Source of the DNA: a bacterium
Lineage (GTDB): Bacteria > Zhuqueibacterota > Zhuqueibacteria > Residuimicrobiales > Krinioviventaceae
Assembly (NCBI GenBank): GCA_963674595.2
Contig: CAXXFV010000027.1
Coordinates: forward strand, 1 to 64,000
Direction: 5' to 3'
DNA: 64,000 nucleotides
Of this stretch, positions 1-25,752 are shown one piece after another. Both the position numbers and the translations under genes were made by a program. Numbering within the stretch: position 1 is the first letter of the stretch; each line of letters starts with the position of its first letter. The notes under the pieces were generated by a model. That model made no database searches, was not told the DNA's origin, and was given only the letters and a program-made list of their open reading frames with translations.

Positions 1-2
1 AA

Positions 3-689: not shown

Positions 690-700
690 CGGAGTTTCAA

Positions 701-1192: not shown

Positions 1193-1200
1193 GATTGATT

Positions 1201-3228
1201 ATGACCCCAGTTGTAGAAACCATTGAAACCAAATGTAAACGATGTTATTCCTGTATACGCCACTGTCCAGCTAAGGCGATAAAAGTTGAGGGAGGCCAGG
1301 CTAAAGTTATTCCCGAACGATGTATCGCATGCGGCCATTGTATAAGGGTTTGCCCTCAAAATGCAAAAACGATACGCGACGGAATTGAGCCTACCAGAGA
1401 AATATTAAAATCCCATGGAAAAAAAATAGCCGCACTGGCGCCTTCTTTTCCGGCTGCTTTTGCTGATGTGCCCTATGGAAAAGTGGTTTCCGGGATTAAA
1501 AAATTGGGTTTTGATGAGGTTTATGAAGTTGCCTTTGCTGCGGATTTTGTCGGGCGTGAATATGAAAAATTTTTGCAGTTAAACTCCATGCCGGTTTCAA
1601 TTTCTTCGTCATGCCCGGCCATTGTCAATTTAATTGAAAAGCATTATCCAAATTTGTTAATGTTTTTAGTGCCTATTGTTTCACCTATGATCGCTATGGG
1701 GCGGTATTTAAAACAAACATTTAGTGATGCCACTGTTGTCTTTATCGGACCATGTGTTGCCAAAAAGAAAGAAATGGAAGATCCAAAAACCAGTGGGGTT
1801 ATTGATCAGGTCCTGACATTTGAAGAAATTGAAAAAATGTTTAAAGAGGATAATATCATTCTATCAGAGTTGGATGAATCAGAGTTTAGCAATCCTCCGG
1901 TGAGCCTGGGTCGAATTTTCCCGTTGTCCGGTGGTTTATTAAAAACAGCAGAAAAACAAAACGATCTTTTAGAAGACGATATCATTGTAACTGAAGGGCG
2001 TGACCGTGTTATCGAAATTTTAGAAAAAGTGGATGAAGGGAGAATAGAATCTCAATTTTTGGATTTACTTTTCTGCCACGGCTGTATTGACGGCCCTAAA
2101 ATGATAAATGATTTATCTGTTTTTATCCGCAAGGATAAAATTGTTTCCTATTATAAAAATAAAACAAATGATAAAAACAAAATCGATTGTCCTGTCTCTT
2201 TATTAAGAAAGTTTACCTTTGAACCTTTAAATTCTGAATTGCCGGATAAGGAAGAAATAAAAAAGATACTTGCTATTACAAATAAATTTTCGCCGGAAGA
2301 TGAATTAAATTGCGGTTCCTGCGGATATGCTACATGCCGTGAAAAAGCGATTGCTGTTTACCAGGGTTTGGCTGAGGCAGAAATGTGTTTACCGTTTATG
2401 ATTGAAAAACTGGAACAAACCCAACAGGATTTACAAAAGTCAAACAAAGAACTTGTACAGTCTCTTGAGGCATTAAGAAAAACCCAGCATCATCTTGTAC
2501 AATCTGAAAAATTAGCTTCCATAGGGCAATTGGCCGCCGGGGTTGCCCATGAATTGAATAATCCTCTTGGCGGGATATTAATTTACACAAGCCTGTTGCT
2601 TGAAAAGGCAAATCAGAATTCGTTGGAAGCACAGGACTTGAATAAAATTCTTAATGAAACGGAACGTTGTCGTAAAATTGTTCAGGATTTGTTAATCTTT
2701 TCAAAACAAACACGTTTGGAAATGTCACGTGTGGATTTGAATGCAATCATTGAAAATACATTGGCCCTTGTTTCACAACAATCTTTATTTCAGAATATTA
2801 AAATTCATAAAAAATTAGTATCTTGTTCTCCTAAAGTAAAAGTGGATGTCGGTCAAATCCAGCAGGTCCTGTTAAACATAATTATAAATGCTGCTCAGGC
2901 GCTTGCCGGTAAAGGTAACCTGACCATAGAAATAAAGTGTTTAAAAAATTCTAAATTTGTAAATTGTAATATAACAGATGACGGTCCGGGTATACCGGAT
3001 TCAATCAAAGAGAAAATATTTGATCCATTTTTTACTACAAAATCTCATGGAAAGGGTACCGGCCTTGGATTAGCGATAGCTTATGGAATTATACAAAAGC
3101 ATGACGGAGAAATATCTGTAAACAGCTCGAAAAACAAAGGCACAACTTTTAGTATAAAACTACCCATTGCAGAACATGTGGAGACAGAAATTGATAATAG
3201 AAAAAGTGAAAATATTAATTATAGATGA
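1201..3228 (+). CDS. Sensory (group C-like) [FeFe]-hydrogenase domain fused to histidine kinase, copy 1
   Basis: 2x[4Fe-4S] motifs CKRCYSCIRHCP and CIACGHCIRVCP; H-cluster-like motifs SSSCP, GPCVAKKKE, LFCHGCIDGP; FeS domain CGSCGYATC...C; H-box AHELNNPL; GKGTGLGL. Start placed at ATG 1201 by comparison with copy 2. Confidence 0.88.
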   Translation: MTPVVETIETKCKRCYSCIRHCPAKAIKVEGGQAKVIPERCIACGHCIRVCPQNAKTIRDGIEPTREILKSHGKKIAALAPSFPAAFADVPYGKVVSGIKKLGFDEVYEVAFAADFVGREYEKFLQLNSMPVSISSSCPAIVNLIEKHYPNLLMFLVPIVSPMIAMGRYLKQTFSDATVVFIGPCVAKKKEMEDPKTSGVIDQVLTFEEIEKMFKEDNIILSELDESEFSNPPVSLGRIFPLSGGLLKTAEKQNDLLEDDIIVTEGRDRVIEILEKVDEGRIESQFLDLLFCHGCIDGPKMINDLSVFIRKDKIVSYYKNKTNDKNKIDCPVSLLRKFTFEPLNSELPDKEEIKKILAITNKFSPEDELNCGSCGYATCREKAIAVYQGLAEAEMCLPFMIEKLEQTQQDLQKSNKELVQSLEALRKTQHHLVQSEKLASIGQLAAGVAHELNNPLGGILIYTSLLLEKANQNSLEAQDLNKILNETERCRKIVQDLLIFSKQTRLEMSRVDLNAIIENTLALVSQQSLFQNIKIHKKLVSCSPKVKVDVGQIQQVLLNIIINAAQALAGKGNLTIEIKCLKNSKFVNCNITDDGPGIPDSIKEKIFDPFFTTKSHGKGTGLGLAIAYGIIQKHDGEISVNSSKNKGTTFSIKLPIAEHVETEIDNRKSENINYR

Positions 3229-4540
3229 TAACGATTCCTTTCGAAATGCTTGTGCCGAATATTTAAAATATGCAGATTTTGATGTAACAAGTACTGATAA
3301 TGCCGAAACCGGATTGAAACTGTGTAATAAAAATGTATTTAAAATAGTATTTGTTGATTATAAAATGCCGGGGCTGGATGGAATTGAATTTTTATTAAAA
3401 CTTAAAGAAAAAACACCCGATGTTGATGTTGTGATTATAACAGGTTACGCCACAATTGAAATGGCCGTTGAAGCTATAAAGCATGGCGCTTATGATTATA
3501 TTCCTAAACCTTTTCATCCGGACAAATTAAAAGCTGTTATAGACAAAATTTTAGAAAAAAACAAATTATTAAACAAAAAACAATCTAAAGCACTCAGTCT
3601 GGATTTAAATGGAACTCCGTTTCAAATAATCGGCAACAGCCCCCGAATGCAGGAAATTTTTACACTTGTACAAAAAGTTGCTCCATCAGACAGCACCATT
3701 CTTATTCTTGGTGAAAGTGGGACGGGTAAAGAACTGATTGCCAAAGCGATTCATGCCAATAGTCATCGCCGTAAAAAAATGTTTTATACAATGGATTGTG
3801 GTTCTTTGGTAGAGTCACTTTTTGAAAGTGAATTGTTTGGCCATGTTAAAGGTTCATTTACAGGTGCCATTGCCACCAAACATGGATCAATGGAATTGGC
3901 GCATGGCGGTACTTTTTTCTTTGACGAAATCGGAAATATATCCAACAATGTTCAGGCAAAAATTTTAAGGGCCATACAGGAAAAAGAAATTCGGCGGGTG
4001 GGAAGCACGACCACAATACCCGTTGATGTTCGGGTTATTTCAGCAACTAATTTAGACTTGAGAAATGCTGTTGAAAAAGGCACATTTCGGGAAGATCTTT
4101 ATTACAGAATAAGTGTTGTGCCGATTTATCTACCACCTTTGAGAGAACGGAAAGAAGATATACCATTATTAATAGACTATTTTATAAAAAACCAAAATGT
4201 AAATCAGAAAACTCAAATTGATGAAATGGCTCCCGATGCCCAGGAACTGTTTATGCAGTATAATTGGCCTGGAAATATACGTGAGCTTGAAAATGCCATT
4301 GAACGGGCCATTTTAATAGAAGAATCTCCACAAATAACATTACAAAGCTTGCCAAAACAAATCAGAGAATTTCACGATTCGAAAAAACGATCCTTTTTAT
4401 CTCTATCTGCTGTAGAAAAAGAGCATATTATAAACATTTTAACGCAAACAAAATGGAATATCAGCAAAGCAGCAAAGATTTTGGAAATTGATAGAAAATC
4501 TTTATATGCTAAAATCAAAAAATATCAGATTAGTCGGTAA
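3191..4540 (+). CDS. Sigma54-dependent NtrC-family response regulator (REC-AAA+-HTH)
   Basis: REC (IIDDN, VDYKMPG, KPF); Walker A GESGTGKE; ESELFGHVKGSFTGA; FFDEIG; WPGNIRELEN; Fis-type HTH NISKAAKILEIDRKSLY. Likely TTG start 3191 after GGAG. Confidence 0.93.
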   Translation: MIIEKVKILIIDDNDSFRNACAEYLKYADFDVTSTDNAETGLKLCNKNVFKIVFVDYKMPGLDGIEFLLKLKEKTPDVDVVIITGYATIEMAVEAIKHGAYDYIPKPFHPDKLKAVIDKILEKNKLLNKKQSKALSLDLNGTPFQIIGNSPRMQEIFTLVQKVAPSDSTILILGESGTGKELIAKAIHANSHRRKKMFYTMDCGSLVESLFESELFGHVKGSFTGAIATKHGSMELAHGGTFFFDEIGNISNNVQAKILRAIQEKEIRRVGSTTTIPVDVRVISATNLDLRNAVEKGTFREDLYYRISVVPIYLPPLRERKEDIPLLIDYFIKNQNVNQKTQIDEMAPDAQELFMQYNWPGNIRELENAIERAILIEESPQITLQSLPKQIREFHDSKKRSFLSLSAVEKEHIINILTQTKWNISKAAKILEIDRKSLYAKIKKYQISR

Positions 4541-4556
4541 AAATGTTCCTGTTATA

Positions 4557-4590
4557 CCACACTTTTAAAAAAGTGTGGAGAAACTCCACA
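4557..4590. promoter_or_regulatory. Overlapping palindromes, candidate enhancer (UAS) for the sigma54 activator
   Basis: CCACACTTTT-AA-AAAAGTGTGG (4557-4578) and TGTGGAG-AAA-CTCCACA (4574-4590), about 110-145 bp upstream of the candidate sigma54 promoter. Confidence 0.55.
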
Positions 4591-4700
4591 GTATGTTCTA
4601 TCATTTTTGAGATATAAGAAGAAAAAGTATATTAAGCCTATATTTTACAGCTCAAAAATATGAAATTACCTTCATTTTTTTTAAAATAAATGTAAAATTA

Positions 4701-4716
4701 TGGCGTGATTTTTGAT
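4701..4716 (+). promoter_or_regulatory. Candidate sigma54 (-24/-12) promoter
   Basis: TGGCGTGATTTTTGAT versus consensus TGGCACG-N4-TTGCW, correct spacing, GA variant at -12; lies just after the sigma54 activator gene and ~40 bp before ATG 4759. Confidence 0.6.
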
Positions 4717-4758
4717 ATAACCAAGCCAAAAATGTTGTATAAAATCTGTAAGGCAATA

Positions 4759-5133
4759 ATGAATTGCTTACTTATATCAAATCCTCAGTGTAATGAAACA
4801 AAACAGTTGTTGGAATACTTGCAATCACAACATGTCTTGGTTGAAACTATAACCGAGGCGATTGTTGGGATTGAAAAAGCTCAGGAACAACATTTTGACG
4901 TTATTGTTATGGATGCCAAGCCAAAAGGAATAAAAATTGACAAAGCGATTCGTTTGCTAAAGGGATGTATTCCGAATGCACGAATCATTGTTCATACGAA
5001 TGAAAATTCAAAAAGGCTGGAAGCAAACGTAAGAAAGGAACAAATCTACTACTATCATATTAACTCGTTCGGAATGCAAGACTTGACTACTGCTGTAGCT
5101 ACCGCCTTGGGAATAAAAATAATAACCCATTAA
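4759..5133 (+). CDS. Atypical (pseudo) receiver domain protein
   Basis: CheY-like pattern with HFDVIVMD, but no acidic pair after beta1 (LLISN) and no KP motif (YHINSF). Confidence 0.65.
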   Translation: MNCLLISNPQCNETKQLLEYLQSQHVLVETITEAIVGIEKAQEQHFDVIVMDAKPKGIKIDKAIRLLKGCIPNARIIVHTNENSKRLEANVRKEQIYYYHINSFGMQDLTTAVATALGIKIITH

Positions 5134-5150
5134 AACAAACGGAGGATGAA

Positions 5151-5597
5151 ATGGCCAAGACAGCAAGAATTTTAATTGTAGACGACGATCCTGATTTTGT
5201 AGAGATTAACAAGACCATTTTAGAAAGCCATGGTTACACCGTTGAAACGGCTGACAGACCGGCTAACGCATGGGAAAAGGTTAAAAATTGGATGCCGGAC
5301 CTTATTTGTCTTGATGTGATGATGCCCTCCGGTACAGAAGGTTTTCATTTTGCTTATAAGGTAAGGAGTGATACAGAAACCCGTGATATTCCAATTTTAA
5401 TGATTACATCCATTCATGACCATAGTGATTTTCAGTTTTCACCTGATCAGGATGGAGATTTTTTACCGGTTGAATATTTTTTAGAAAAACCAATAAAATC
5501 TGATGTACTTATCTCTCATGTGGAATTGCTGCTTGAAAGCGGACGTGCAAAGAAAGAAACGAAACCTGATAAAGGTATTGGCTTAAAAAGAGATTAA
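5151..5597 (+). CDS. Single-domain response regulator
   Basis: ILIVDDDPDF, LDVMMP, MITS, LEKP; RBS GGAGG. Confidence 0.9.
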   Translation: MAKTARILIVDDDPDFVEINKTILESHGYTVETADRPANAWEKVKNWMPDLICLDVMMPSGTEGFHFAYKVRSDTETRDIPILMITSIHDHSDFQFSPDQDGDFLPVEYFLEKPIKSDVLISHVELLLESGRAKKETKPDKGIGLKRD

Positions 5598-5634
5598 CCA
5601 GGCGCATGAAATCCACTAAAAAAGGTGGTTAATT

Positions 5635-6021
5635 ATGGAAGCAAAACGAATATTATTAGCGGATGATGATCCGGATTTCCTCGAAATAAATAGAACGATT
5701 TTAGAAGCAAATGGATATTTAGTTGAAGAGGCTTCTACTTCTGCAGAAGCTCTCGAAAAACTTGAAACACATGAATTTGATCTGATTATTCTGGATCTCA
5801 TGATGGAAGAACGCGATTCGGGCTTTACAATCGCCTATGCTGTGCGTGAAAACGAACGGTTGCGTCACCTTCCGATTTTAATGTTAACTTCGGCAGAAGA
5901 AAAAACAGGATTTTCATTCAAGTTTTCTAATGATAAGGAATGGATGAAAGTTGATGATTTTGCTGCAAAACCCTTAAAACCAGCAGAACTTGTTATGCGA
6001 ATTGAAAAACTCTTAAAATGA
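5635..6021 (+). CDS. Single-domain response regulator
   Basis: ILLADDDPDF, LDLMME, MLTS, AKP. Confidence 0.9.
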   Translation: MEAKRILLADDDPDFLEINRTILEANGYLVEEASTSAEALEKLETHEFDLIILDLMMEERDSGFTIAYAVRENERLRHLPILMLTSAEEKTGFSFKFSNDKEWMKVDDFAAKPLKPAELVMRIEKLLK

Positions 6022-6033
6022 GGTCATAACATT

Positions 6034-7509
6034 ATGACTGATTCAGAGATTAGAATACTCGTTGTGGACGATGAAGAAATTATTCGTATCGGATGTAAAC
6101 GTATTTTGGAAGATACGCCCTATACTGTTGATATGGCAGAAAATGGTCGTGTTGGACTGGAGCTGTTGAAAAAAAACAGTTATGACCTTGTTTTGATAGA
6201 CCTGATGATGCCGCAAATGGGCGGACTTGAATTGCTGGAATATATTCCCGAAATCGATCCGAACCTTATTTCTATCATTATAACCGGTTTTGCAACGATA
6301 GAAACAGCCGTTGATGCTGTTAAAAAAGGCGCCTATGACTATTTGCCAAAGCCTTTTACTCCTGATGAGTTTCGTGCCCAGGTTCATCGTGGTTTGGAAA
6401 AAAGACGCCTGTTGCTTGAAGCGGAAAAGCTGAGAGAAGAAAGAGACCGGAATTTACTTGAATGCAGCAATGAAAAAACCAAAACGCTCACCATTATAAA
6501 CTGTATGAGTGAAGGAGTTATAGTCACCAACAGGTTAGGGCAAATAGTTTTGGTAAATCCCATTGCTTCTAAAATGCTGAGGACTGACAAATCCAGGCTT
6601 ATCGGCAAAACAGTTGACGGTCTGTTAGGAAGCAACGATCTGGAAAAATTGATTACCGAAACGCTTGAAAAAGTAACAAAAACAGTAACCACAACAAGAC
6701 TTGAAATAAAAACATCAGACGAACGGGTACTTCAACCCAATATAACACCCATTATTGATGAAAATGGTGAGGTTGTTGGTATTGTAACCGTTATAATTGA
6801 TATTACAGAAGAAAAGAAAATTGAAAAAACAAAATCGGAATTTGTCCGGCTGGTTTCTCATGAACTAAAAGCGCCAATAGGCGCCATTGAAGGATACCTT
6901 AATCTTATTATTGACGGACTGATTAAGGACAATCCTGAAAAACAAATGGATATTATAAAAAAATCACGAGACCGCGCCGAAGGACTATTATTATTAATCA
7001 ACGATTTACTGGACCTTTCAAGAGCGGACCGTAAAATATCCAAGGTTATGGAAGTCCTTCAGGTTAATGATATTTTGTGTGATAATTTTGAATTTTATAA
7101 TAATGAGGCTAAAAACAAAAATATTAAATTCATCTGTCAATCGGGAGAAAATATGCCGGCCATTTGGGGAAATGCGGAAGACCTTGCACGTGTTTTTGCC
7201 AATTTGTTTAGCAATGCCATTAAATATACGCCGGAGAACGGAACTGTAACCGTGTCATCTCTTGCAGAAAATTCACACGTTGTTGTCAAAGTTCAAGATT
7301 CCGGTATAGGCATTTCATCCGAAGACAAAAAAAATATATTTAATGAATTTTTCAGGACCAAAGAAGTTATTGCCAAAAAAATTACCGGTACAGGTTTGGG
7401 TTTGGCAATTGCTAAAAAAATTATAGATGACCATCATGGTCATATCGAAGTTGAAAGTACTCTTGGAAAAGGTTCAACATTTATTGTATCTTTTCCAATT
7501 TATCAATAA
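6034..7509 (+). CDS. Hybrid sensor kinase REC-PAS-HisKA-HATPase, copy 1
   Basis: N-terminal REC; PAS (MSEGVIVTNRLGQIVLVNP...DITE); H-box SHELKAP; NAIKY; GTGLGL. Confidence 0.92.
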   Translation: MTDSEIRILVVDDEEIIRIGCKRILEDTPYTVDMAENGRVGLELLKKNSYDLVLIDLMMPQMGGLELLEYIPEIDPNLISIIITGFATIETAVDAVKKGAYDYLPKPFTPDEFRAQVHRGLEKRRLLLEAEKLREERDRNLLECSNEKTKTLTIINCMSEGVIVTNRLGQIVLVNPIASKMLRTDKSRLIGKTVDGLLGSNDLEKLITETLEKVTKTVTTTRLEIKTSDERVLQPNITPIIDENGEVVGIVTVIIDITEEKKIEKTKSEFVRLVSHELKAPIGAIEGYLNLIIDGLIKDNPEKQMDIIKKSRDRAEGLLLLINDLLDLSRADRKISKVMEVLQVNDILCDNFEFYNNEAKNKNIKFICQSGENMPAIWGNAEDLARVFANLFSNAIKYTPENGTVTVSSLAENSHVVVKVQDSGIGISSEDKKNIFNEFFRTKEVIAKKITGTGLGLAIAKKIIDDHHGHIEVESTLGKGSTFIVSFPIYQ

Positions 7510-7549
7510 CCCAATTATACAAAACAAATTTTAATAATATGAGGATTTA

Positions 7550-8014
7550 ATGGACAGTAGAGAATTATATGAAAGACATCCTTCATCTGAAGCATCTGCA
7601 CTTATACCTTTTTTACAAGATTTGCAGGAATTATATGGGTACCTTCCAGAAGATGAAATGCGAAAAGTTGCCAACCATCTAAGATTGCCTTTCAGTCGCG
7701 TTTATGGTGTTGCTACATTTTATAACCAATTCCGGTTGCAACCATTGGGAAAATATGTTATCAAAGTATGCCGTGGTACAGCCTGTCACGTCAAAGGATC
7801 ATTTGATTTGCTAACAACTCTTGAAAATGAGCTCGGAATTAAAGCCGGCGAAACAACCAAAGATTTAAAATTTACTATAGAAACTGTTGCTTGCATAGGA
7901 GCTTGCAGTATGGCTCCCGTTATTGCTATAAATGATGAATTTTACGGTGGATTAACCGTAAAATCTTTGCAAAAGCTGCTGAAAACGATTGATAAAAACG
8001 GAGAAAAGGAGTAG
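7550..8014 (+). CDS. hydC: NuoE-like [2Fe-2S] subunit of multimeric [FeFe]-hydrogenase 1 (HydC)
   Basis: GVATFY, CRGTACH, ACIGACSMAP. Confidence 0.88.
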   Translation: MDSRELYERHPSSEASALIPFLQDLQELYGYLPEDEMRKVANHLRLPFSRVYGVATFYNQFRLQPLGKYVIKVCRGTACHVKGSFDLLTTLENELGIKAGETTKDLKFTIETVACIGACSMAPVIAINDEFYGGLTVKSLQKLLKTIDKNGEKE

Positions 8015-8017
8015 AGA

Positions 8018-10024: not shown

Positions 10025-10041
10025 TATATTAGAGGAATAGA

Positions 10042-11751: not shown

Positions 11752-11753
11752 TA

Positions 11754-13796: not shown

Positions 13797-13811
13797 ATAA
13801 CAGGTTAAAAA

Positions 13812-14207
13812 ATGAAAAAGAAAATACTGCTTGTCGATGATGATACAGATTTTGTAGCAATTAATCGTGATTTTTTGATTAGTAACGGATTTCAAGTCCT
13901 GGTAGCTTATAACGGACAAGAAGCTGAACAAGTATTGGCTGAAGAAATACCGGATTTAATGATATTAGATGTTATGATGAGTGAAGTAGGAGAGGGTTTT
14001 GAGGTGGCGCGAAACGTTCGGGCCGATGAGAGAACAGCACACATTCCTATTCTCATGCTTACCTCTGTCAATCAGGAACATGATTTTAATTTAACAATTG
14101 GGCCTGATGCCAACTGGAACCCGGTTGACCAGTTTGTTGAAAAACCCATTGAACATAAGCAATTACTCGAAAAAGTATATGAACTGCTCAAGATAGAAAA
14201 GGAATAA
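13812..14207 (+). CDS. Single-domain response regulator
   Basis: ILLVDDD, LDVMMS, MLTS, EKP. Confidence 0.9.
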   Translation: MKKKILLVDDDTDFVAINRDFLISNGFQVLVAYNGQEAEQVLAEEIPDLMILDVMMSEVGEGFEVARNVRADERTAHIPILMLTSVNQEHDFNLTIGPDANWNPVDQFVEKPIEHKQLLEKVYELLKIEKE

Positions 14208-14210
14208 GGA

Positions 14211-14609
14211 ATGAATAAGAAAATATTAATGGTTGATGACGATATTGATTTGATAGATATTTACAAGCCGGTTTTGGAAAATGCCGGTTATACCGTTAAA
14301 GCAGCCTATGACAGCAACGAAGGTTTTCAGGCTTTTCAGGACTTTAATCCGGATGTTGTATTGGTTGATTTGGCAATGGAGCATTTTGATTCCGGTTTTG
14401 TTCTTTGCCATAAAATTAAAAAACTTGAAAAATCCAAAAATATACCGGTTATCATTATGACAGCCGCCGGACACGAAACCGGAATTCGTTTTACAACACA
14501 AACAAATGAAGAAAGAAACTGGATTAAAGCTGACGATTATCTGGAAAAACCTATTTCTCCAAGAGATTTATTGCAATATTTGAATGAAAAAGTATTCAAG
14601 GCCAAATGA
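14211..14609 (+). CDS. Single-domain response regulator
   Basis: ILMVDDD, VDLAME, IMTA, LEKP. Confidence 0.9.
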   Translation: MNKKILMVDDDIDLIDIYKPVLENAGYTVKAAYDSNEGFQAFQDFNPDVVLVDLAMEHFDSGFVLCHKIKKLEKSKNIPVIIMTAAGHETGIRFTTQTNEERNWIKADDYLEKPISPRDLLQYLNEKVFKAK

Positions 14610-16114
14610 TAGTTGAAAATCGTCAAATACTTGTCATTGATGATGAACGAGGAATGCGTGAGGGTATAAAACGCATTCTGGAGCTTCAGGGTCACCATGT
14701 AGATACTGCTGATAACGGAACGCTTGGAATAGAGCTTGGTTCCTTTAAAGAATATGATCTCTATTTCATTGATTTAAAAATGCCGGATATTGAAGGAACT
14801 CAGGTTTTACGTGAGATAAAATTATGCTATCCGGAAGCGATCTGCATAATTGTAACAGCTTTTGCATCGATTGAAACCGCAGTAACAACGACCCGTTTAG
14901 GTGCTTATCAGTATATTTCCAAGCCCTTTACTCCGGAAGAGCTTAATATTCTGGTTAACCGCGCTTTGGAACGCAGATGGTACATTCTTGAAGCTCGCCG
15001 ACTAAAAGAAGAACAACAAAGTCGTCTTTTAGAGGTTGCAAATGAAAAGTCCAGAATGCGTACAATTATCAATGCACTGGATGACGGTATTCTTGTAGTA
15101 AATCAAAATGGTGAAATTGTTCTATTTAATCCTGGATTTTTGAAATTACTCGATATTAAAAATGAACTTAAAATAGGTGAAACCATTTATCCATTTTTGC
15201 CGGCAGAACTTTCAAATCAAATCCAGGAAATACTGTTTAACAGAGGTGTTTTTAAGGCTATTAAACAGGAACTTGTAGTAAAACCGCCTGCTGAGATGGT
15301 AATTATGGCCAATACGACACCTATTTTAAATAATAATAATGAACTTGTTGGGCTCGTTTCAGTGTTGCGCGACATTACCGAACTTAAACAAGTTGATGTT
15401 CTTAAATCACAATTTGTTAATATGGCTGCCCATGAATTGAAATCACCTTTATCGGCAGTTCAGGGCTACCTGGAAATGATTGCAGACCATACACTTGGTG
15501 ATGCTCCTGAAATATATGACGGCTATGTTAACCGTTCTCTTGAAAGGACTAAATCATTGGTTGCTTTAATCAATGATTTGCTCAATATCTCTCGTCTTGA
15601 TGCAAATAAAGTTCGAAGAGATATAGTATCTCTTAATTTATCTGATATAATTTTTGATGAGTTAATTAATTTAAAAGATAAATTTTTCAATAAAAATTTG
15701 TATATTGAACTCTCTATTGATAATATGCTTTTTGTTGAGGCAGATGAACAAGAAGTCCGTAGAGTTTTCAAAAACCTGATTTCCAATGCTATAAAATACA
15801 ATCGTGACGACGGTCAGATTTTTATTCGCACCAAAATACTTGCTCATTATTTTTTAATTGAAATAAGAGACACCGGCATTGGTCTGTCACCTGAAGAAAA
15901 AGATCGACTCTTTGAAGAGTTTTTTCGCGCAAAAAACAAGTACACAAGGCGTATTCCTGGTACGGGTTTAGGGCTCAGTATTGTTAAAAAAATATTGGAT
16001 ACTTATGCAGGAAAAATTGAGATAGAAAGTACGTTTGAACAAGGTTCAGTTTTTTTTGTATCATGGCCGAAACCGGTTAAGTCAGCAACACCTGTTAATA
16101 CCCTTAATTCATAA
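14606..16114 (+). CDS. Hybrid sensor kinase REC-PAS-HisKA-HATPase, copy 2
   Basis: REC; PAS (LDDGILVVNQNGEIVLFNP...RDITE); H-box AHELKSP; NAIKY; GTGLGL. Confidence 0.92.
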   Translation: MIVENRQILVIDDERGMREGIKRILELQGHHVDTADNGTLGIELGSFKEYDLYFIDLKMPDIEGTQVLREIKLCYPEAICIIVTAFASIETAVTTTRLGAYQYISKPFTPEELNILVNRALERRWYILEARRLKEEQQSRLLEVANEKSRMRTIINALDDGILVVNQNGEIVLFNPGFLKLLDIKNELKIGETIYPFLPAELSNQIQEILFNRGVFKAIKQELVVKPPAEMVIMANTTPILNNNNELVGLVSVLRDITELKQVDVLKSQFVNMAAHELKSPLSAVQGYLEMIADHTLGDAPEIYDGYVNRSLERTKSLVALINDLLNISRLDANKVRRDIVSLNLSDIIFDELINLKDKFFNKNLYIELSIDNMLFVEADEQEVRRVFKNLISNAIKYNRDDGQIFIRTKILAHYFLIEIRDTGIGLSPEEKDRLFEEFFRAKNKYTRRIPGTGLGLSIVKKILDTYAGKIEIESTFEQGSVFFVSWPKPVKSATPVNTLNS

Positions 16115-16143
16115 ACATTTTTATGCCATAAAAAGGATGATAT

Positions 16144-16485
16144 ATGCAAATTCAAGACATCGTTACGAAACTTGGTCTCCGAATTTTGAGTGGGGAAAAC
16201 AATCTGACCAAAGATGTTACTTGCGGATATATTTCCGACATTTTAAGCGATGTGATGGCCAAATCTGCAAAGGGAGCAATATGGGTAACCAACCAAACCC
16301 ATGAAAATATAATTGCCATTGTTTTTTTTAAAAATTTGGCTGGTGTAATTTTACCTGATAATTTGCAGCCTGAAGAATCTGCTTTACAAAAAGCTAAGGA
16401 AAAATCGATACCGATCTTTGTATCCGAATATTCAGCATTCGATATTGCCGGTAAACTTTATGAACTGGGTATCCGGGGGAAATAG
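16144..16485 (+). CDS. DRTGG-domain-like protein (hydrogenase-associated)
   Basis: GYISDILSDVM, WVTNQTHENIIA, AFDIAGKLYELG pattern typical of small DRTGG proteins found in Hnd/Hyd operons. Confidence 0.75.
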   Translation: MQIQDIVTKLGLRILSGENNLTKDVTCGYISDILSDVMAKSAKGAIWVTNQTHENIIAIVFFKNLAGVILPDNLQPEESALQKAKEKSIPIFVSEYSAFDIAGKLYELGIRGK

Positions 16486-16488
16486 TGA

Positions 16489-17235
16489 ATGCTTTCATTG
16501 TACAAAGCAGACCTTCATATACATTCTGTTTTATCAGCCTGTGCTGAACTGAGTATGGGCCCCAAGGACATTGTTGCAAAAGCCCTGGAAAAAAAACTTG
16601 ATATTATTGCGATAACAGATCATAATTCTGCTGAAAATGCAGGAGCTGTGATTGATTGTGCCAAGGATACTAAACTTTTCGTTATTCCCGGTATAGAGAT
16701 TTATACAAGAGAAGAAGTCCATGTTATTGCTCTGTTTGAATCAGTTGAATCAGCACAACAAATGGAACAATTCATCTATTCACATTTACCGGAAGGTGAT
16801 TATGATGAATCATATTTTGGACAACAAATAGTATGCGATAAAAATCAAAATGTAATTGATTATAACACGAAAATGCTGCCGTTTCCTGTTAATTGCTCGC
16901 TTCATGATGTTGCACATCAGGTGGAACAATTAAACGGAATTTTTTATCCGGCCCACATAAACCGCAAGGCAAACAGTATTCTCCGTGTGCTGGGATTTAT
17001 CCCGGATAATCTGCCGATAAAGGCCCTGGAAATTACAAAACCCTATAAAGAAGCAGTTGAAGAATTACGTTTTTTAAAAAATACAAAATATAGCATCCTT
17101 GTTTCATCCGATGCTCATGATATAAACGATGTGGGCAAAAATTCTACATTGATGAAACTGGAAGAGCCTTCATTTTCTGAAATTAAATTGGCTATTGAAC
17201 AAAAACAAGACCGGACTATTATAAACGAGGAATGA
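16489..17235 (+). CDS. PHP-domain phosphoesterase
   Basis: DLHIHSVLSAC, AITDHN, GIEI, AHINR, SSDAH metal-binding motifs. Confidence 0.88.
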   Translation: MLSLYKADLHIHSVLSACAELSMGPKDIVAKALEKKLDIIAITDHNSAENAGAVIDCAKDTKLFVIPGIEIYTREEVHVIALFESVESAQQMEQFIYSHLPEGDYDESYFGQQIVCDKNQNVIDYNTKMLPFPVNCSLHDVAHQVEQLNGIFYPAHINRKANSILRVLGFIPDNLPIKALEITKPYKEAVEELRFLKNTKYSILVSSDAHDINDVGKNSTLMKLEEPSFSEIKLAIEQKQDRTIINEE

Positions 17236-17780
17236 GAGAACTATCCTTACATATTCTCGATATTGCTACTAATTCTGTTGAAGCAGAAGCGACAAGAGTC
17301 ATTTTATTTATTAAAGAATCTGAAAAAGAGAATCTGTTTCAGATCATAGTAAGAGACAATGGTCGCGGTATGAGCCCGGAATTGCTAAAAAAAGTAATAG
17401 ACCCATTTACTACTTCCCGAACAACACGTAAAGTGGGAATGGGCCTGCCATTAATGAAACTTGCTGCCGAACAGGCAGGAGGTTCTTTGAAGATTAATTC
17501 TGAATTGGGTAAAGGCACCCAGTTATGTGTGACTTTACAAAAAAATAACCTAAACCGCGCGCCGCTTGGTGATATTGGCGATACAGTTGTAAACCTGATA
17601 ATAGGTGCACTTGACGTTCATTTTTGTTATTTGCACCAAACCGATATAGGATGTTTTCGTTTTGATTCTTTTTGGATTTTTGCCGAAATGGCAAATCAAA
17701 ATCTAAATATATATGAAATGGTTGAACCTGCAAAAAAATACATAAATACAGGTTTAACAAATATTAAGTCAGTTGGCTAA
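17232..17780 (+). CDS. Histidine-kinase-like ATPase (HATPase_c only), hydrogenase-associated
   Basis: MRELSLHILDIATNS, DNGRGM, DPFTTSRTTRKVGMGL, RAPLGD; no sensor or HisKA domain. Confidence 0.82.
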   Translation: MRELSLHILDIATNSVEAEATRVILFIKESEKENLFQIIVRDNGRGMSPELLKKVIDPFTTSRTTRKVGMGLPLMKLAAEQAGGSLKINSELGKGTQLCVTLQKNNLNRAPLGDIGDTVVNLIIGALDVHFCYLHQTDIGCFRFDSFWIFAEMANQNLNIYEMVEPAKKYINTGLTNIKSVG

Positions 17781-17840
17781 ATATTAACATAATTAATTAT
17801 AAACCAATAAAACTAAATAACCATTTAGGAGGAACCAAAC

Positions 17841-18203
17841 GTGAAAACATTAGCGGATCTCCGAGCCATTAAGGAGAAAGCGAAAAAAGAGATGGCAGCA
17901 CGAGAAGAGACCGCCAAATACCGCATAATAGTTGCAATGGGCACATGCGGAATTGCGGCAGGTGCTCGAAATGTAATGAGTGCAATTCTTGATGAAATTA
18001 ACAAACGAAATGTAAGTGATACAGTTGTAACGCAAACAGGTTGTTTGGGATATTGTGATCAGGAACCTTTGGTGCAGGTAGCTCAACCGGACAAAACGAT
18101 CATTACTTATGGTAAAGTTTCACCTGAAACAGCCAGACAGATCGTTGCGGAACACATTATAAATAATAATGTTTTGTCAGGACATGTTTTTAAACAGGAT
18201 TAA
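17841..18203 (+). CDS. Thioredoxin-like [2Fe-2S] ferredoxin subunit (HndB/HydD-like)
   Basis: MGTCGIAAGA, TGCLGYCDQEP; GTG start with AGGAGG. Confidence 0.85.
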   Translation: MKTLADLRAIKEKAKKEMAAREETAKYRIIVAMGTCGIAAGARNVMSAILDEINKRNVSDTVVTQTGCLGYCDQEPLVQVAQPDKTIITYGKVSPETARQIVAEHIINNNVLSGHVFKQD

Positions 18204-18252
18204 TCAAAAGAAAATTTAGTAATAACCAATAGAAGATATACATTGGAGGTCT

Positions 18253-18732
18253 ATGATGCCAAATCTGGATCGAGTGGATGAAATTGTACAAAATTATAAT
18301 GACACAAAGACACCACTCATTTACATTTTAAAAGATGTACAGAACGAATACGGATATCTCTCAGAAGATGTTTTAACAAAAGTTGCTTCGGCAACCAATA
18401 TACCACTTTCTGAAATATATGGTGTTGCAACATTCTACAGCTTGTTTACTATAAATGAAAAAGGTAAAAATATCGTTAGATGTTGTAATAATGCTCCTTG
18501 TCATGTTAATGGTTCCAAGGAAGTGCTTGCAAAAGTTCAAGAGTATCTCGGTGTAAATGTTGGTGAAACAACAAATGATAAAGCATTTACATTAGAATTT
18601 ACCAGTTGTCTGGGTCTGTGTGCCGTAGCCCCTGTTATGATGGTTAATGACAATGTTTATGGTAATCTTACTCCTGAAAAAGCAGTTTCCATTTTGAAGG
18701 ACTATAAAATGAAAGGATCATCTAATGAATAG
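18253..18732 (+). CDS. hydC: NuoE-like [2Fe-2S] subunit of hydrogenase 2 (HydC/HndA-like)
   Basis: GVATFYS, CNNAPCH, SCLGLCAVAP. Confidence 0.85.
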   Translation: MMPNLDRVDEIVQNYNDTKTPLIYILKDVQNEYGYLSEDVLTKVASATNIPLSEIYGVATFYSLFTINEKGKNIVRCCNNAPCHVNGSKEVLAKVQEYLGVNVGETTNDKAFTLEFTSCLGLCAVAPVMMVNDNVYGNLTPEKAVSILKDYKMKGSSNE

Positions 18733-20359
18733 ATTACATATACTCATCGCCATGGATCCCCATACAATTGCTCAGGGAGCGCGTTCTGTTAAAGATGCGC
18801 TTGTTAAAGACCTGGCCCTGGCAGGTTTAACTGAAGAAGTTAAAGTCGTTGAAACCGGAAGTTTGGGTATTTATAACAAAGGTGTTGTCTTTGTTGTTTT
18901 TCCTGATGCTGTTTACTATGCCGGTGTCAAGGTTGAAGATGTTGCTGAAATTGTTTCCGAACATTTAGTTAAAGGTCGTCCGGTTGAAAGATTGCAATAC
19001 AAAGAATTTGCCGGTGCAGAAAAAGTGACTGAAAAAGATCAGGCTGCACGATTTGGCAAACAAAAACGTGTTGTATTAAAAAATGCCGGTATTATTGATC
19101 CTGAAAGTATTGAAGAATATATTGCTCATGACGGGTATGAAGCACTTGGTAAAGCCCTGACTGAAATGACACCTGAAAAAGTTATGCAGGAAGTAACAGA
19201 ATCCGGTATGCAGGGACGCGGCGGCGCATTTTTTCCAACCGGATTAAAATGGAGCTTTGCAGCAAAAGAAAAATCCGAAATTAAATATATCGTTTGTAAT
19301 GCCGATGAAGGCGAACCAGGTACATTTAAAGATCGTTTAATTCTTGAAGGTGATCCTCATGCTGTTATTGAAGGTATGGCCCTGGCCGGTTATGCTGTAG
19401 GTGCAAGCATGGGTTATGTATATATTCGTGGTGAATATAAAATGTCAATTGATCGTATGCAGCGTGCAATTGATCAGGCAAAAGAAAAAGGTTTATTGGG
19501 TGAAGATATTTTTGGAAGCAAGTTCTCCTTTAATCTTGAAATTCGTGAAGGTGCCGGTGCCTATATTTGTGGCGAAGAAACCGCACTTATTGAATCAATA
19601 GAAGGCAAACGTGGTGAACCTCGTGATAAACCGCCATTTCCTCCGTCAGAAGGTTTATGGGGTAAACCAACAATTGTTAACAATGTAGAAACACTTGCCA
19701 ATGTACCGCAAATAATTTTAAACAGTGCTGATTGGTACAAAGACATGGGCACTGAAAAAAGCCCTGGTACTAAAGTATTTACAATGGTAGGAAATATCAA
19801 TAATCCTGGATTAATTGAAGTGCCAATGGGAATTACTCTCCGTGAAATTATCTATGACATCGGTCATGGTATTCCAAATGGAAAAGGATTTAAAATGGCG
19901 CAAATGGGTGGTACAACAGGTGGTATTTTAACAGAAGAACACCTGGATATGCCGTTGGCTATTGAAAACCTGCGCGAAATCGGATCCGGCCTGGGATCAG
20001 GCGCTTTGCTTGTTGTTGATGATTCCCAGTGTGTTGTTGATCTGGTTAAAAACTTTGTTGAATTTTTTAATCATGAATCTTGCGGCAAATGTACATTATG
20101 TCGTGAAGGAACCGGTCGTTTACTAGAGTTGTTGGATAAAATATCTGACGGCGAAGGTAAAGAAGGTGACCTGGAATTGATTGAAACACTTTCTTCAACA
20201 ATGATGAAAGGCGCCTTTTGTGGTTTGGGTCAGGCTGCGCCAGTGCCAATTCTTGGATGTTTGAAATATTTCCGACAGGAATTTGCTTCTCATATTGATG
20301 AAAAATCTTGTCAGGCTGGTGTTTGTGAATTTAAATCTGTTGAAGCGGAAATTGCTTAA
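18725..20359 (+). CDS. hydB: NuoF-like FMN/NADH subunit of hydrogenase 2, non-bifurcating-type signature
   Basis: GRGGAFFPTG, ADEGEPGTFKDR, GAGAYICGEET, GGTTGG, SCGKCTLCREG; no C-terminal 2x[4Fe-4S] domain. Confidence 0.88.
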   Translation: MNRLHILIAMDPHTIAQGARSVKDALVKDLALAGLTEEVKVVETGSLGIYNKGVVFVVFPDAVYYAGVKVEDVAEIVSEHLVKGRPVERLQYKEFAGAEKVTEKDQAARFGKQKRVVLKNAGIIDPESIEEYIAHDGYEALGKALTEMTPEKVMQEVTESGMQGRGGAFFPTGLKWSFAAKEKSEIKYIVCNADEGEPGTFKDRLILEGDPHAVIEGMALAGYAVGASMGYVYIRGEYKMSIDRMQRAIDQAKEKGLLGEDIFGSKFSFNLEIREGAGAYICGEETALIESIEGKRGEPRDKPPFPPSEGLWGKPTIVNNVETLANVPQIILNSADWYKDMGTEKSPGTKVFTMVGNINNPGLIEVPMGITLREIIYDIGHGIPNGKGFKMAQMGGTTGGILTEEHLDMPLAIENLREIGSGLGSGALLVVDDSQCVVDLVKNFVEFFNHESCGKCTLCREGTGRLLELLDKISDGEGKEGDLELIETLSSTMMKGAFCGLGQAAPVPILGCLKYFRQEFASHIDEKSCQAGVCEFKSVEAEIA

Positions 20360-20400
20360 GGCATTTCCCGTATAAATTGAGTTTTCATGGAGGAATTAAA

Positions 20401-22134
20401 GTGAATAATATCACGGTAACCATAGATGGAAAAAATATTTCAGTTCCTGTCGGAACAACTGTTTTAGAGGCAGCTGAAAAACTGGGCATCAAAGTCCCCC
20501 GGTTGTGTTATCATCCGGATTTGCCGCCTGTTTCAGCCTGCCGTCTTTGTGTTGTTGAAATTGAAGGGGATCGTCTCCTGCGTACGTCTTGTTCCTGGAA
20601 ATGCCAGGATGGTATGAAAATTTCAACACGATCAAAAACCGTACGTGAGTCTCGACGAATGGCAATGGAATTACTGCTGTCAAGACACCCAATGAAATGT
20701 ACGGAATGTGTTAGAAACGGATCATGTGAATTGCGTGATGTAGCTGACCAACTTGGTATTCGCGAAAACAGTTTTGAATACAATGAAAGAAAAGGTACAC
20801 TTGATCTTTCCAGTGCAGCTATCGTTCGTGATCCTTCAAAGTGTATTTTATGTCGCCGCTGTGTTCAGACATGTGAGCTGGTCCAGAGCGTCAGCGCTAT
20901 CGGTCTTGAAGGCAGAGGATACGATGTTTGGGTAGACACCCCATTTGGTAAAGGTATTGGCGATATTGCCTGTGTATCCTGTGGTCAGTGTATTGATCGT
21001 TGTCCGGTTGGTGCATTGTATGAAAACAGCCATATTCAGCGTGTTTGGGATGCTCTTGATGATCCTAAAAAACATGTTGTTGTTCAAACAGCACCGGCTG
21101 TTCGCGCATCCATTGGTGAAGAATTCGGCCTTCCTGCCGGTTCTTTGGTAACCAAAAAGATGGTTGCTGCGCTGCGTATGATGGGTTTTGATAAAGTATT
21201 TGATACGGATTTTACAGCCGATTTAACAATTCTCGAAGAAGGCCATGAATTGTTGGGACGTATTAATAATGGTGGAACACTTCCAATGTTGACATCCTGC
21301 AGCCCGGGATGGATCAATTTTATCGAACATTTTTATCCGCAATTATTACCACATGTATCTTCATGTAAATCTCCACAACAAATGTTTGGTGCTTTGGCAA
21401 AAACATATTATGCTGAAAAATTTGGCATTAAACCGGAAGATATTTATGTTGTATCTATCATGCCTTGTACAGCTAAAAAATATGAAGCTGGTCGTGATGA
21501 AATGTCGGACAGTGGCTTCCAGGATGTTGATGCCGTATTAACAACGCGTGAAGCCGGTACGATGATCAAACAATTGGGTATTGATTTTGAAAACTTGCCT
21601 GATGAAAAGTTTGATGAACCTTTGGGTATTTCCACAGGTGCGGCTGTTATTTTTGGAAACACCGGTGGTGTTATGGAAGCTGCATTAAGAACGGTTTATG
21701 AAGTTCTGACCAAAAAACCATTGGATGATATCGAAATTAAAGCAGTACGTGGATTAGAAGGTATTAAAGAAGCAGAAGTTGAAATTGCCGGTATAAAAGT
21801 TAAAGCCGCTGTTGCTAACGGCCTTGCAAATGCCCGCAAGTTGATGGATAAAATTGTAGCCGGTGAAGCCGATTATCACTTTATTGAAATCATGGCTTGT
21901 CCTGGTGGATGTATAGGTGGTGGCGGTCAGCCAATACCGACTTCAACCTTAATCCGACAAAAACGTTCAGAGGCAATTTATGAAGAGGATCGTGGTTTGG
22001 AACTTCGAAAATCTCATGAAAATCCTGCTGTTATTAAACTGTATGAAGAATTTTTGGGTGAACCAAACGGTCATAAATCTCATGAATTACTTCACACAAA
22101 ATATACTCCGAAAACAGTATATAAAACTGCTTAA
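20401..22134 (+). CDS. hydA: Group A [FeFe]-hydrogenase catalytic subunit 2 (HydA/HndD-like)
   Basis: Same FeS motif set as copy 1; TSCSPGW, MPCTAKKYE, EIMACPGGCIGGGGQP. GTG start 20401 after GGAGG. Confidence 0.95.
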   Translation: MNNITVTIDGKNISVPVGTTVLEAAEKLGIKVPRLCYHPDLPPVSACRLCVVEIEGDRLLRTSCSWKCQDGMKISTRSKTVRESRRMAMELLLSRHPMKCTECVRNGSCELRDVADQLGIRENSFEYNERKGTLDLSSAAIVRDPSKCILCRRCVQTCELVQSVSAIGLEGRGYDVWVDTPFGKGIGDIACVSCGQCIDRCPVGALYENSHIQRVWDALDDPKKHVVVQTAPAVRASIGEEFGLPAGSLVTKKMVAALRMMGFDKVFDTDFTADLTILEEGHELLGRINNGGTLPMLTSCSPGWINFIEHFYPQLLPHVSSCKSPQQMFGALAKTYYAEKFGIKPEDIYVVSIMPCTAKKYEAGRDEMSDSGFQDVDAVLTTREAGTMIKQLGIDFENLPDEKFDEPLGISTGAAVIFGNTGGVMEAALRTVYEVLTKKPLDDIEIKAVRGLEGIKEAEVEIAGIKVKAAVANGLANARKLMDKIVAGEADYHFIEIMACPGGCIGGGGQPIPTSTLIRQKRSEAIYEEDRGLELRKSHENPAVIKLYEEFLGEPNGHKSHELLHTKYTPKTVYKTA

Positions 22135-22150: not shown

Positions 22151-22189
22151 AAGCCTCAAAGAAATTTTCTTTGGGGCTTTTTTCTTTTT
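22151..22189 (+). terminator. Rho-independent terminator closing the hydrogenase cluster
   Basis: AAGCCTCAAAGAA / TTCTTTGGGGCTT stem followed by a T tract. Confidence 0.8.
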
Positions 22190-24267: not shown

Positions 24268-24309
24268 AAAAAGTTGCGGCTATTTTGAATTCCGGAGAGG
24301 TAATGAACA

Positions 24310-25377: not shown

Positions 25378-25389
25378 TTGGAGGATAGA

Positions 25390-25698: not shown

Positions 25699-25752
25699 CT
25701 AAGACTATTATATAATAATCAGTATTTAATTATAACCAGAGGGATTACTTTT

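Follow-up and report, generated by a model that had tools for sequence, protein, structure and literature searches.

In the [NiFe] regulatory hydrogenase systems HoxBC-HoxJ-HoxA and HupUV-HupT-HupR, sensor and kinase are separate proteins, the regulator is NtrC-type, and the genes controlled are those of uptake hydrogenases in aerobes. Such systems (HydDB group 2b, histidine-kinase-linked) are, in outline, the nearest functional analogue of the locus described here: in them a non-catalytic hydrogenase signals the presence of H2 to a histidine kinase, and hydrogenase genes are controlled through a response regulator, although the metal centres and protein families are unrelated to those of the window. 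The locus occupies positions 1-22134 of the window, a stretch of 64 kb at the start of contig C27 in a bacterial genome of 6.6 Mb, and comprises two [FeFe]-hydrogenase-like sensor kinases (HydS-HK1 and HydS-HK2; HK, histidine kinase), an NtrC-type activator, a series of receiver (REC) proteins, two hybrid kinases (REC-PAS-HK1 and REC-PAS-HK2) and two NAD-linked [FeFe] hydrogenases, Hyd1 and Hyd2. It probably encodes an H2- or hydrogenase-redox-responsive two-component network that controls one sigma-54 hydrogenase super-operon, with a bifurcating-type and an NADH-only-type enzyme as its products.

Among described [FeFe] proteins, TmHydS and TamHydS, putative sensory hydrogenases of group C/D, share with the window sensors an N-terminal 2x[4Fe-4S] domain, an H-domain, a C-terminal Cx2Cx4Cx16C motif, changes at the positions of Cys299, Met353 and Met497, and a gene position beside a bifurcating hydrogenase (as described in PMC8163306). 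The window sensors have Gly at 353 as in TmHydS and Leu at 497 as in TamHydS, and they carry a complete HisKA/HATPase kinase, whereas TmHydS and TamHydS carry a PAS domain or no signalling domain. Kinase-domain sensors named BfuT, encoded beside A3 hydrogenases, define the sub-type V clusters of Hydrogenedentota, Calditrichota and three Bacteroidota genomes; in these three, one bfuT lies upstream of bfuC and one downstream of bfuA, an arrangement whose implications were called "unclear" in 2024 (PMC11406978). The present locus resembles the BfuT/BfuABC clusters in having a gene for a kinase-domain hydrogenase-like protein immediately after that of the catalytic subunit, another sensor gene ahead of a C-subunit gene (as in some of those clusters), and a B subunit comparable to BfuB without B3/B4 clusters, which was taken as non-bifurcating (PMC11406978). 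Unlike the BfuT clusters as described in that paper, whose main text has no occurrence of the term 'response regulator', it has a putative NtrC/sigma-54 promoter and a second hydrogenase, predicted to be non-bifurcating, in the same gene string. The HydDB label of [FeFe] group C1, 'histidine kinase-linked (putative)', fits the window sensors, although kinase-domain BfuT was placed by HydDB in C3 (PMC11406978). Hyd2 is comparable to S. wolfei Hyd1ABC and S. aciditrophicus HydAB, which are described as non-bifurcating and NADH-dependent (PMC7311640), in that its flavoprotein subunit HydB2 has Thr/Lys at 232/234, no GGPSG and fewer Fe-S domains; unlike them, it comes with an extra protein, HydD, and its NADH-only activity is a prediction. 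The layout is therefore partly described already. An earlier interpretation made from the letters of the window without database searches (the sequence-only reading) did not recognise it as a described system, which is overstated given the kinase-domain sensors and two-sensor clusters reported in PMC11406978. In a literature search that stopped short of subscription journals and supplements, no paper was found on NtrC/sigma-54 wiring, a two-tier relay, or the pairing of bifurcating and non-bifurcating enzymes in one cluster.

Domains were assigned with Pfam on the window proteins (Table 1). All genes from base 3 to 22134 lie on the plus strand, and two sets of genes follow one another, each with a HydS-HK, two single receivers, a REC-PAS-kinase and the HydC, HydB and HydA subunits of an NAD-linked hydrogenase. 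This is the tandem double architecture recognised in the sequence-only reading, although its module scheme passed over two intervening stretches: the NtrC gene and a weak receiver between sensor 1 and its receivers, and the DRTGG, PHP, HATPase-only and HydD genes (16144-18203) that separate hybrid kinase 2 from hydrogenase 2. Its tally for 1-16114 of nine receivers, five kinases and one DNA-binding output (the HTH_8 of the NtrC-type protein) holds, with one receiver degenerate and one kinase truncated by the contig start; a sixth HATPase_c protein, without HisKA (17232-17780), falls outside the count of five kinases. The two sets are, judging from amino-acid identities of only 42-58% (HydS-HK 50%, REC-PAS-HK 42%, HydC 44%, HydB 47%, HydA 58%), old paralogues rather than a recent duplication.

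Independent support for the assembly comes from a Logan contig of run X1, which is probably the source sample of the genome. This contig matches window 2-9586 with 2 differences and spans the junction between sensor 1 and the NtrC gene, so that the assembly is supported there; the junction was bridged by X1 only, runs of other studies (X3, X4 and X8) yielding non-bridging pieces. Public data would allow the truncated kinase gene at 3-689 to be completed, since the X1 contig continues for 2130 bases beyond window base 2 on the upstream side. That fragment was also considered as a third HydS-HK paralogue and rejected, its identity to the third paralogue of relatives being ~25%.

The sensors were aligned with HydA1 and HydA2, and then with 35 relatives, giving 37 family members in all. 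The H-cluster cysteines C142, C189, C296 and C299 (P1, P2 and the two of P3), the cores of the P2 and P3 motifs, the C-terminal Cx2Cx4Cx16C motif and the phospho-accepting His of the kinase are present in 37/37. The position of the proton-relay cysteine, just before the P1 ligand, is Cys in the catalytic HydA1 and HydA2 and is occupied by Ser, Pro, Ala or Phe in the sensors (Cys in 0/37; Ser in the two sensors of the window). Gly takes the place of Met353, and Leu that of Met497, in 35/37 each. The same residue traits (no relay Cys, changed Met positions) have been used to call putative sensory hydrogenases (PMC8163306, PMC8924675), and the sensory role of group C hydrogenases is itself termed putative (PMC8924675). 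Each sensor has three accessory cluster motifs besides the H-cluster, with an N-terminal 2x[4Fe-4S] domain (Fer4) and a C-terminal FeS domain (PF04060) assigned by Pfam in both. The H, N, G1 and G2 kinase boxes are all present in HydS-HK1, HydS-HK2, REC-PAS-HK1 and REC-PAS-HK2, and absent or incomplete in the 3-689 fragment and the 17232-17780 protein. An AlphaFold2 model of HydS-HK1 built from the 37-sequence alignment (mean predicted local distance difference test score 85.7, predicted template modelling score 0.64) has one unbroken helix, 401-473, which begins right after C400, the final cysteine of the FeS motif, and contains His454; in the model, this continuous helix would offer a simple path from cluster redox state to kinase. 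The motifs support the view, held in the sequence-only reading too, that both proteins are putative [FeFe] sensors linked to kinases; they look like non-catalytic, group C-like H-cluster proteins joined to complete kinases.

HydA1 and HydA2 are full M3-type catalytic subunits, the best PDB match of HydA1 being the bifurcating HydA1 of T. kivui (7.8e-209). The P1 motif of both is TSCSPGW, with Ser and not Cys in the fifth position, as in A. woodii HydA1; Ser at this position is described as common in four of five sub-types (PMC11406978). The two enzymes were told apart by their HydB subunits, of which HydB1 (668 amino acids) has a C-terminal 2x[4Fe-4S] domain and HydB2 (544 amino acids) has none. 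Published criteria for bifurcating HydB are Ala/Glu232, Met234, Phe367, GGPSG and more Fe-S domains, and for non-bifurcating HydB Thr/Ser232, Lys/Ser/Ala234, Tyr at 367 and no GGPSG (PMC7311640); loss of the B3/B4 clusters has been tied to loss of bifurcation (PMC11406978). Positions 232 and 234 were placed in PG-x-F-x-DR by offsets in PDB alignments. Eighteen HydB1-type proteins (from the window, 9 relatives, 7 distant families and contig C34 of the same genome) all have PGAFMDR and GAGAFVCGE, and 17 of them have GGPSG and two ferredoxin motifs (CxxCxxCxxxC), the exception being a broken open reading frame (ORF). The HydB2-type proteins, ten out of ten, have PGTFKDR, GAGAYICGE, GGTTG and no ferredoxin motif, so that the GAGA[F/Y] site is Phe in HydB1 and Tyr in HydB2. 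Because these published signatures separate HydB1 from HydB2, Hyd1 is predicted to be of bifurcating type, working in the confurcating direction from NADH and reduced ferredoxin, and Hyd2 to be of non-bifurcating type and NADH-only; at the level of sequence signatures, the two hydrogenases do differ in predicted catalytic type, in line with what had been proposed. Overall, HydB2 is closest to bifurcating HydB structures. Its N-terminal thioredoxin-like domain (window 18725-19100) has no Cys in the first 130 residues and is cysteine-free in 10/10 orthologues; the separate HydD (17841-18203) keeps its cysteines, shares 37% identity with residues 55-145 of HydB1 and may replace the cluster domain lost from HydB2.

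The candidate output of the network is the NtrC-type activator, which has the phospho-accepting Asp in its receiver, a Walker A motif GESGTGKE, a variant loop GSFTGA and the HTH_8 domain; its nearest NCBIfam models are AtoC and ZraR, with scores below their cut-offs. The region 3' of its gene was aligned with the counterpart from seven relatives, and two conserved blocks were found, a palindrome (4574-4590) and a -24/-12 type motif (4701-4716), 111 bp apart. The promoter motif emerged only from this alignment of orthologous intergenic regions; a search for the canonical TGGCAC-N5-TTGCW with up to 2 mismatches gave 29 matches against 30.9 expected, none of them useful. Palindrome and sigma-54 motif each occur once in the window, and the palindrome is the sole zero-mismatch copy in the 6.6 Mb genome. 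With loose patterns, the palindrome (up to 2 mismatches) and the promoter motif were found together at the equivalent place in 6 relatives and the promoter motif without the palindrome in 2 more (8 in all), and neither was found in genome G009. The genome encodes rpoN and ~30 sigma-54 activators. We regard the palindrome as a probable activator binding site. It was also listed as a weak hairpin in the terminator scan; a terminator role was rejected as its main reading because the sequence and not just the pairing is conserved, and because no T run follows.

A conserved start, MNCL, found in relatives too, sets the start of the weak receiver at 4759, and from there 17 co-directional genes run to a strong terminator at 22151-22179, which is the best-scoring site of its scan and the first strong one after 4716. 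Scans for sigma-70 promoters and terminators over 1-20000 were at chance level, and no convincing terminator was found before 22151. Since no intergenic gap between the weak receiver gene and hydA2 exceeds 61 bp (3 bp between hydA1 and sensor 2) and the strong terminator comes after hydA2, both hydrogenases may share one transcript, and a single long sigma-54 transcript of the 17 genes would be the simplest reading.

Matches to the hydrogenase part of the sensor were found in 38/41 genomes of the order (own genome included), mostly as 2-3 paralogues, and in 64/151 genomes sampled across the phylum. Loci with orthologues of sensor 2 (type 2), each read as far as it extends, have in 9/9 relatives the order hydC1-hydB1-hydA1-sensor 2-REC-REC-REC-PAS-HK2-DRTGG-PHP-HATPase-HydD-hydC2-hydB2, with the sensor directly 3' of hydA1 in every case; the NtrC gene and weak receiver lie upstream in 7/9, and a receiver and REC-PAS-HK1 lie between the weak receiver and hydC1 in 4/9. 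The type-1 sensor lies away from this cluster in 11/11 relatives examined: alone, with a DRTGG gene, or with REC, REC, REC-PAS-HK and DRTGG. The DRTGG gene also follows the type-1 cassette in 8/11, and in four genomes the type-1 sensor is preceded by a third sensor paralogue and a tail-anchored receiver. Within these limits, the stretch between the weak receiver and hydA2, both included, is shared by 9/9 relatives, and sensor 1 stands outside it. In other families, 7/12 loci (10 genomes) have the order hydC-hydB (bifurcating type)-hydA-sensor-REC-kinase, the kinase being 373-419 amino acids long. As far as gene order tells, the oldest recognisable unit is one that places the sensor after the bifurcating enzyme, and sensor 2 may for that reason belong with the upstream Hyd1. 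The 'sensor first' phasing of set 1 is, on the same comparison, peculiar to this genome among those examined; if sensor 2 does belong with Hyd1, the sensor-led module boundaries drawn in the sequence-only reading shift.

Eight receivers of the locus keep the acidic pair, Asp, Thr and Lys; the weak receiver keeps Asp and Thr only, with SN replacing DD and NS replacing KP. No signalling protein of the locus scored above any curated NCBIfam cut-off. The models nearest to the sensor kinase cores are AtoS and ZraS, those nearest to the REC-PAS-kinases are PnpS, WalK and PhoR, and those nearest to the four single receivers are PhoB/OmpR-type receivers. The receivers of NtrC, the 701-1192 protein and REC-PAS-HK1 are 37-42% identical mutually and 23-33% identical to the single receivers. 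In 6/8 loci from other phyla, a kinase with a sensor-like core is followed by an NtrC-type gene; these loci come from a search with the whole sensor that gave mostly unrelated kinases sharing the kinase core only, and the search was used solely for this adjacency count. In genome G080 a type-1 sensor is followed by a tail-anchored receiver and then by NtrC. On the basis of the nearest kinase and receiver families, the receiver identities, the kinase-NtrC adjacency and the order in G080, two tiers are proposed, in which the sensors would act on NtrC-like receivers and the REC-PAS-kinases on single receivers. The 701-1192 protein ends in a hydrophobic tail of ~22 residues, which is kept in 6 orthologues beside type-1 sensors and probably anchors this receiver in the membrane. 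By eye, no LOV-type cysteine motif was found in the PAS domains.

In the favoured explanation, H2 would reduce the H-cluster and accessory clusters of a sensor, and the redox change would travel down the helix and set kinase or phosphatase activity. The AtoS/ZraS-like sensor cores would phosphorylate NtrC-like receivers, namely the activator, the tail-anchored receiver and the N-terminal receivers of both REC-PAS-kinases. Phosphorylated NtrC would bind the palindrome and open the sigma-54 promoter. The genes so expressed would be, in order, those of the weak receiver, relay 1 with Hyd1, sensor 2 with relay 2, the DRTGG/PHP/HATPase trio and, last, Hyd2. In a second tier, the PhoR/WalK-like REC-PAS-kinases would target the four PhoB-like single receivers, which may serve as phosphate sinks or protein-level effectors. 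Sensor 2 would be made from the operon that it helps to control, which would build feedback into the system. At any given H2 pressure, the choice of active enzyme would fall to thermodynamics or to the DRTGG/PHP/HATPase trio acting at the protein level; there is no indication of separate transcription.

Several observations weigh against parts of this explanation. The -12 element is TTGA and not the canonical TTGC, and genome-wide 61% of TTGC sites are intergenic against 22% of TTGA sites (reversed control 10%, crude baseline 9.5%), so that the element here is a weaker, non-canonical form. Internal promoters are possible; a gap of 0.6-1.3 kb lies 5' of the DRTGG gene in G040, G025 and G027. 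The NtrC gene is not adjacent in G002 or G009, and sensor 1 adjoins NtrC only in this genome and G080. Partner assignment draws on family likeness with scores below curated cut-offs. In the seven distant-family loci, the sensor is accompanied by a receiver and a second kinase only, with no DNA-binding protein near, so transcription may not be the ancestral output. Finally, the mapping of Phe367 is uncertain, the nearest aromatic position by offset (W[F/Y]) being Tyr in both HydB1 and HydB2.

The sequence-only reading had proposed a switch, in which a branched phosphorelay with inputs from two H2 sensors of different tuning selects Hyd1 or Hyd2 according to H2 partial pressure. The sensor paralogues are indeed just 50% identical and both are kept across the order, the HydB signatures differ between the enzymes, and a separate relay set lies ahead of each hydrogenase. 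Making H2 from NADH alone requires very low H2; purified HydAB reached 2.2-40.2 Pa (PMC7311640). The earlier interpretation as a whole is partly supported, and a genuine switch is conceivable, but the promoter layout gives no pointer to it: there is a single activator, a single palindrome and a single sigma-54 motif, all upstream of both enzymes, with no convincing terminator between the enzymes and only 3 bp between hydA1 and sensor 2, so the DNA gives no sign of separate control. The unlinked sensor 1 of the relatives, the ancestral unit with its sensor after Hyd1 and the third HydBAC cluster of the genome (contig C34) speak against it as well, and we consider the switch unlikely. Much the same low standing is given to a hard-wired H2-pressure gauge, in which two sensors with different set-points, a two-tier kinase-receiver-kinase cascade and the kinase/phosphatase-like trio would choose between confurcating and NADH-only hydrogenase; if true, no H2-sensing signal pathway based on an [FeFe] centre would have been defined before it.

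Two further explanations depart from the super-operon network in what is sensed or in what is controlled. The HydS-HK proteins could be redox sensors of the ferredoxin/NAD pool that use the H-domain as an iron-sulfur scaffold, with or without the 2Fe subcluster. The three accessory cluster motifs of each sensor would suit this role, H-cluster motifs have been described as hard to find in some group C1 sequences (PMC11406978), and reviews call the group C sensory role putative; four H-cluster cysteines and P2/P3 cores invariant in 37/37 sensors are, however, hard to explain without an H-cluster, and the sensor genes are tied to hydrogenase operons, which makes this explanation improbable. The main output could instead lie at the protein level, with the single receivers, the REC-PAS-kinases and the DRTGG/PHP/HATPase-only trio modifying or binding the hydrogenases and NtrC being a lineage-specific add-on. 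The seven distant-family loci with sensor-REC-kinase and no DNA-binding gene fit this, as does the DRTGG gene after both cassette types in relatives; SpoIIAB, a serine kinase and anti-sigma F factor, is weakly similar to the HATPase-only protein (9.1e-8), and the PHP domain has the fold of a phosphoesterase. Set against these points, the unit of NtrC, palindrome and sigma-54 motif is kept in most relatives, no target site or interaction is known, and no paper joining DRTGG, PHP and hydrogenase was found in the literature searched. A mainly protein-level output is held to be improbable, and the sigma-54 super-operon network is preferred.

Table 1. Features of the locus and its flanks (positions are those of the window).
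Feature	Position	Strand	Evidence
Histidine-kinase-like protein, C-terminal fragment cut by contig start	3..689	+	HATPase_c 2.4e-19; visible part without H-box
Receiver with C-terminal hydrophobic tail	701..1192	+	Response_reg 1.2e-36
HydS-HK1	1189..3228	+	Pfam: 2x4Fe4S, Fe_hyd_lg_C, FeS, HisKA, HATPase_c
NtrC-type sigma-54 activator (REC, AAA+, HTH_8)	3167..4540	+	Sigma54_activat 8.4e-68, HTH_8 5.1e-13
Perfect palindrome TGTGGAG-N3-CTCCACA, probable activator site	4574..4590	none	Alignment of orthologous regions
Sigma-54 promoter motif TGGCGT-N5-TTGAT	4701..4716	+	Conserved column block in alignment
Degenerate (pseudo-)receiver	4759..5133 (ORF call from 4705)	+	Response_reg 23.3 bits vs Pfam cut-off 30.2
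Single-domain receiver	5151..5597	+	Response_reg 3.6e-19; DD, Asp, Thr, Lys kept
Single-domain receiver	5635..6021	+	Response_reg 1.3e-19; nearest models PhoB/OmpR-type receivers
REC-PAS-HisKA-HATPase hybrid kinase 1 (REC-PAS-HK1)	6034..7509	+	Pfam; H-box SHELKAPI and N, G1, G2 boxes
HydC1 (NuoE-like 2Fe-2S subunit)	7550..8014	+	2Fe-2S_thioredx 4e-53
HydB1, bifurcating-type flavoprotein subunit	8018..10024	+	Complex1_51K, NADH_4Fe-4S, C-terminal 2x4Fe4S domain
HydA1, catalytic [FeFe]-hydrogenase subunit	10042..11751	+	Fe_hyd_lg_C 1e-106, Fe_hyd_SSU
HydS-HK2, second sensor kinase	11754..13796	+	Pfam and motifs; start 3 bp past hydA1 stop
Single-domain receiver	13812..14207	+	Response_reg 6.8e-19
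Single-domain receiver	14211..14609	+	Response_reg 2.1e-19; type found after sensor in 7 distant-family loci
REC-PAS-HisKA-HATPase hybrid kinase 2 (REC-PAS-HK2)	14606..16114	+	Pfam; H-box AHELKSPL
DRTGG-domain protein	16144..16485	+	DRTGG 3e-06
PHP-domain (phosphoesterase-like) protein	16489..17235	+	PHP 2.4e-10
HATPase_c-only protein, no HisKA, no H-box	17232..17780	+	HATPase_c 4.6e-17
HydD, small thioredoxin-like 2Fe-2S protein	17841..18203	+	2Fe-2S_thioredx 1.4e-07
HydC2	18253..18732	+	2Fe-2S_thioredx 1.1e-51
HydB2, non-bifurcating-type flavoprotein subunit	18725..20359	+	Pfam: without C-terminal Fer4 domain
HydA2, catalytic [FeFe]-hydrogenase subunit	20377..22134	+	Fe_hyd_lg_C 9.8e-105, Fe_hyd_SSU
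Terminator-like hairpin (13 pairs) then T run	22151..22179	+	Terminator scan

Elsewhere in the genome (G000), which encodes 8 Fe_hyd_lg_C proteins in total, such loci lie on contigs C34 (L114:6853-11323), C7 (L113:7117-11749) and C23 (L115:6928-8619). The multimeric cluster of C34 has the order hydB-hydA-hydC and a bifurcating-type HydB of 727 amino acids, and three further hydrogenase-like proteins of the genome have 483, 574 and 563 amino acids. SusD was looked for in this genome and not found. Just 3' of the locus, window 22312-26761 encodes an SSF-family symporter, a protein with an acetate-kinase/BadF-like ATPase fold, an ABM monooxygenase-like protein, and HypA and HypB, the last two being [NiFe] maturation proteins; further on, at 33560-37173, the gene of a multihaem cytochrome c7/c3-like protein precedes that of an iron-sulfur protein of 995 amino acids, a pair that suggests a respiratory complex. 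The probable tail-anchored receivers always adjoin a type-1 HydS-HK (window 701-1192, L099:10680-11177, L101:9936-10427, L105:9795-10307, L106:9833-10342, L116:7106-7624 and L117:11331-11855).

Among the relatives, the hydA1 orthologue of G009 (L098:7988-9699) is split into ORFs of 345 and 221 amino acids, possibly by a frameshift or a sequencing error. In G040 (L100:14169-15332) and in the matching stretch of G025 (L102), REC-PAS-HK2 and the DRTGG gene, only 30 bp apart in the window, are separated by an inserted ORF of 387 amino acids, which by eye resembles a Mur ligase and has a GxxGxxGKT-like motif. In G043, a genome of a distant family (L122, C1:16500-36400), a REC-HydS-HK-REC-REC-PAS-HK cassette lies ~2.3 kb, with no scored gene between, from a second string composed of DRTGG, a kinase-less HydS-like protein (421 amino acids), DRTGG, PHP, HATPase and HydC; by this proximity the kinase cassette is linked there to a Hyd2-type cluster.

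The ways in which fermenters and syntrophs perceive H2 have yet to be worked out, and we know of no [FeFe] sensory hydrogenase with a defined downstream pathway. All [FeFe] 'sensory' hydrogenases are still called putative in the text of PMC8924675 and in HydDB. The chief interest of the locus is that it opens [FeFe]-based H2 sensing to direct tests: one piece of DNA holds a complete chain of a sensor-kinase fusion, a candidate activator whose conserved palindrome occurs once in the genome and lies near a sigma-54 promoter motif, and two enzymes, and these enzymes are predicted to differ in their need for ferredoxin, the very property that makes H2 pressure matter. Sequence rules for predicting bifurcation could also be tested on this natural pair, whose bifurcating-type and non-bifurcating-type members share one conserved string. 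If confirmed, the system would be an [FeFe] counterpart of the classic [NiFe] H2-sensing system and possibly a genetic H2 biosensor for anaerobes.

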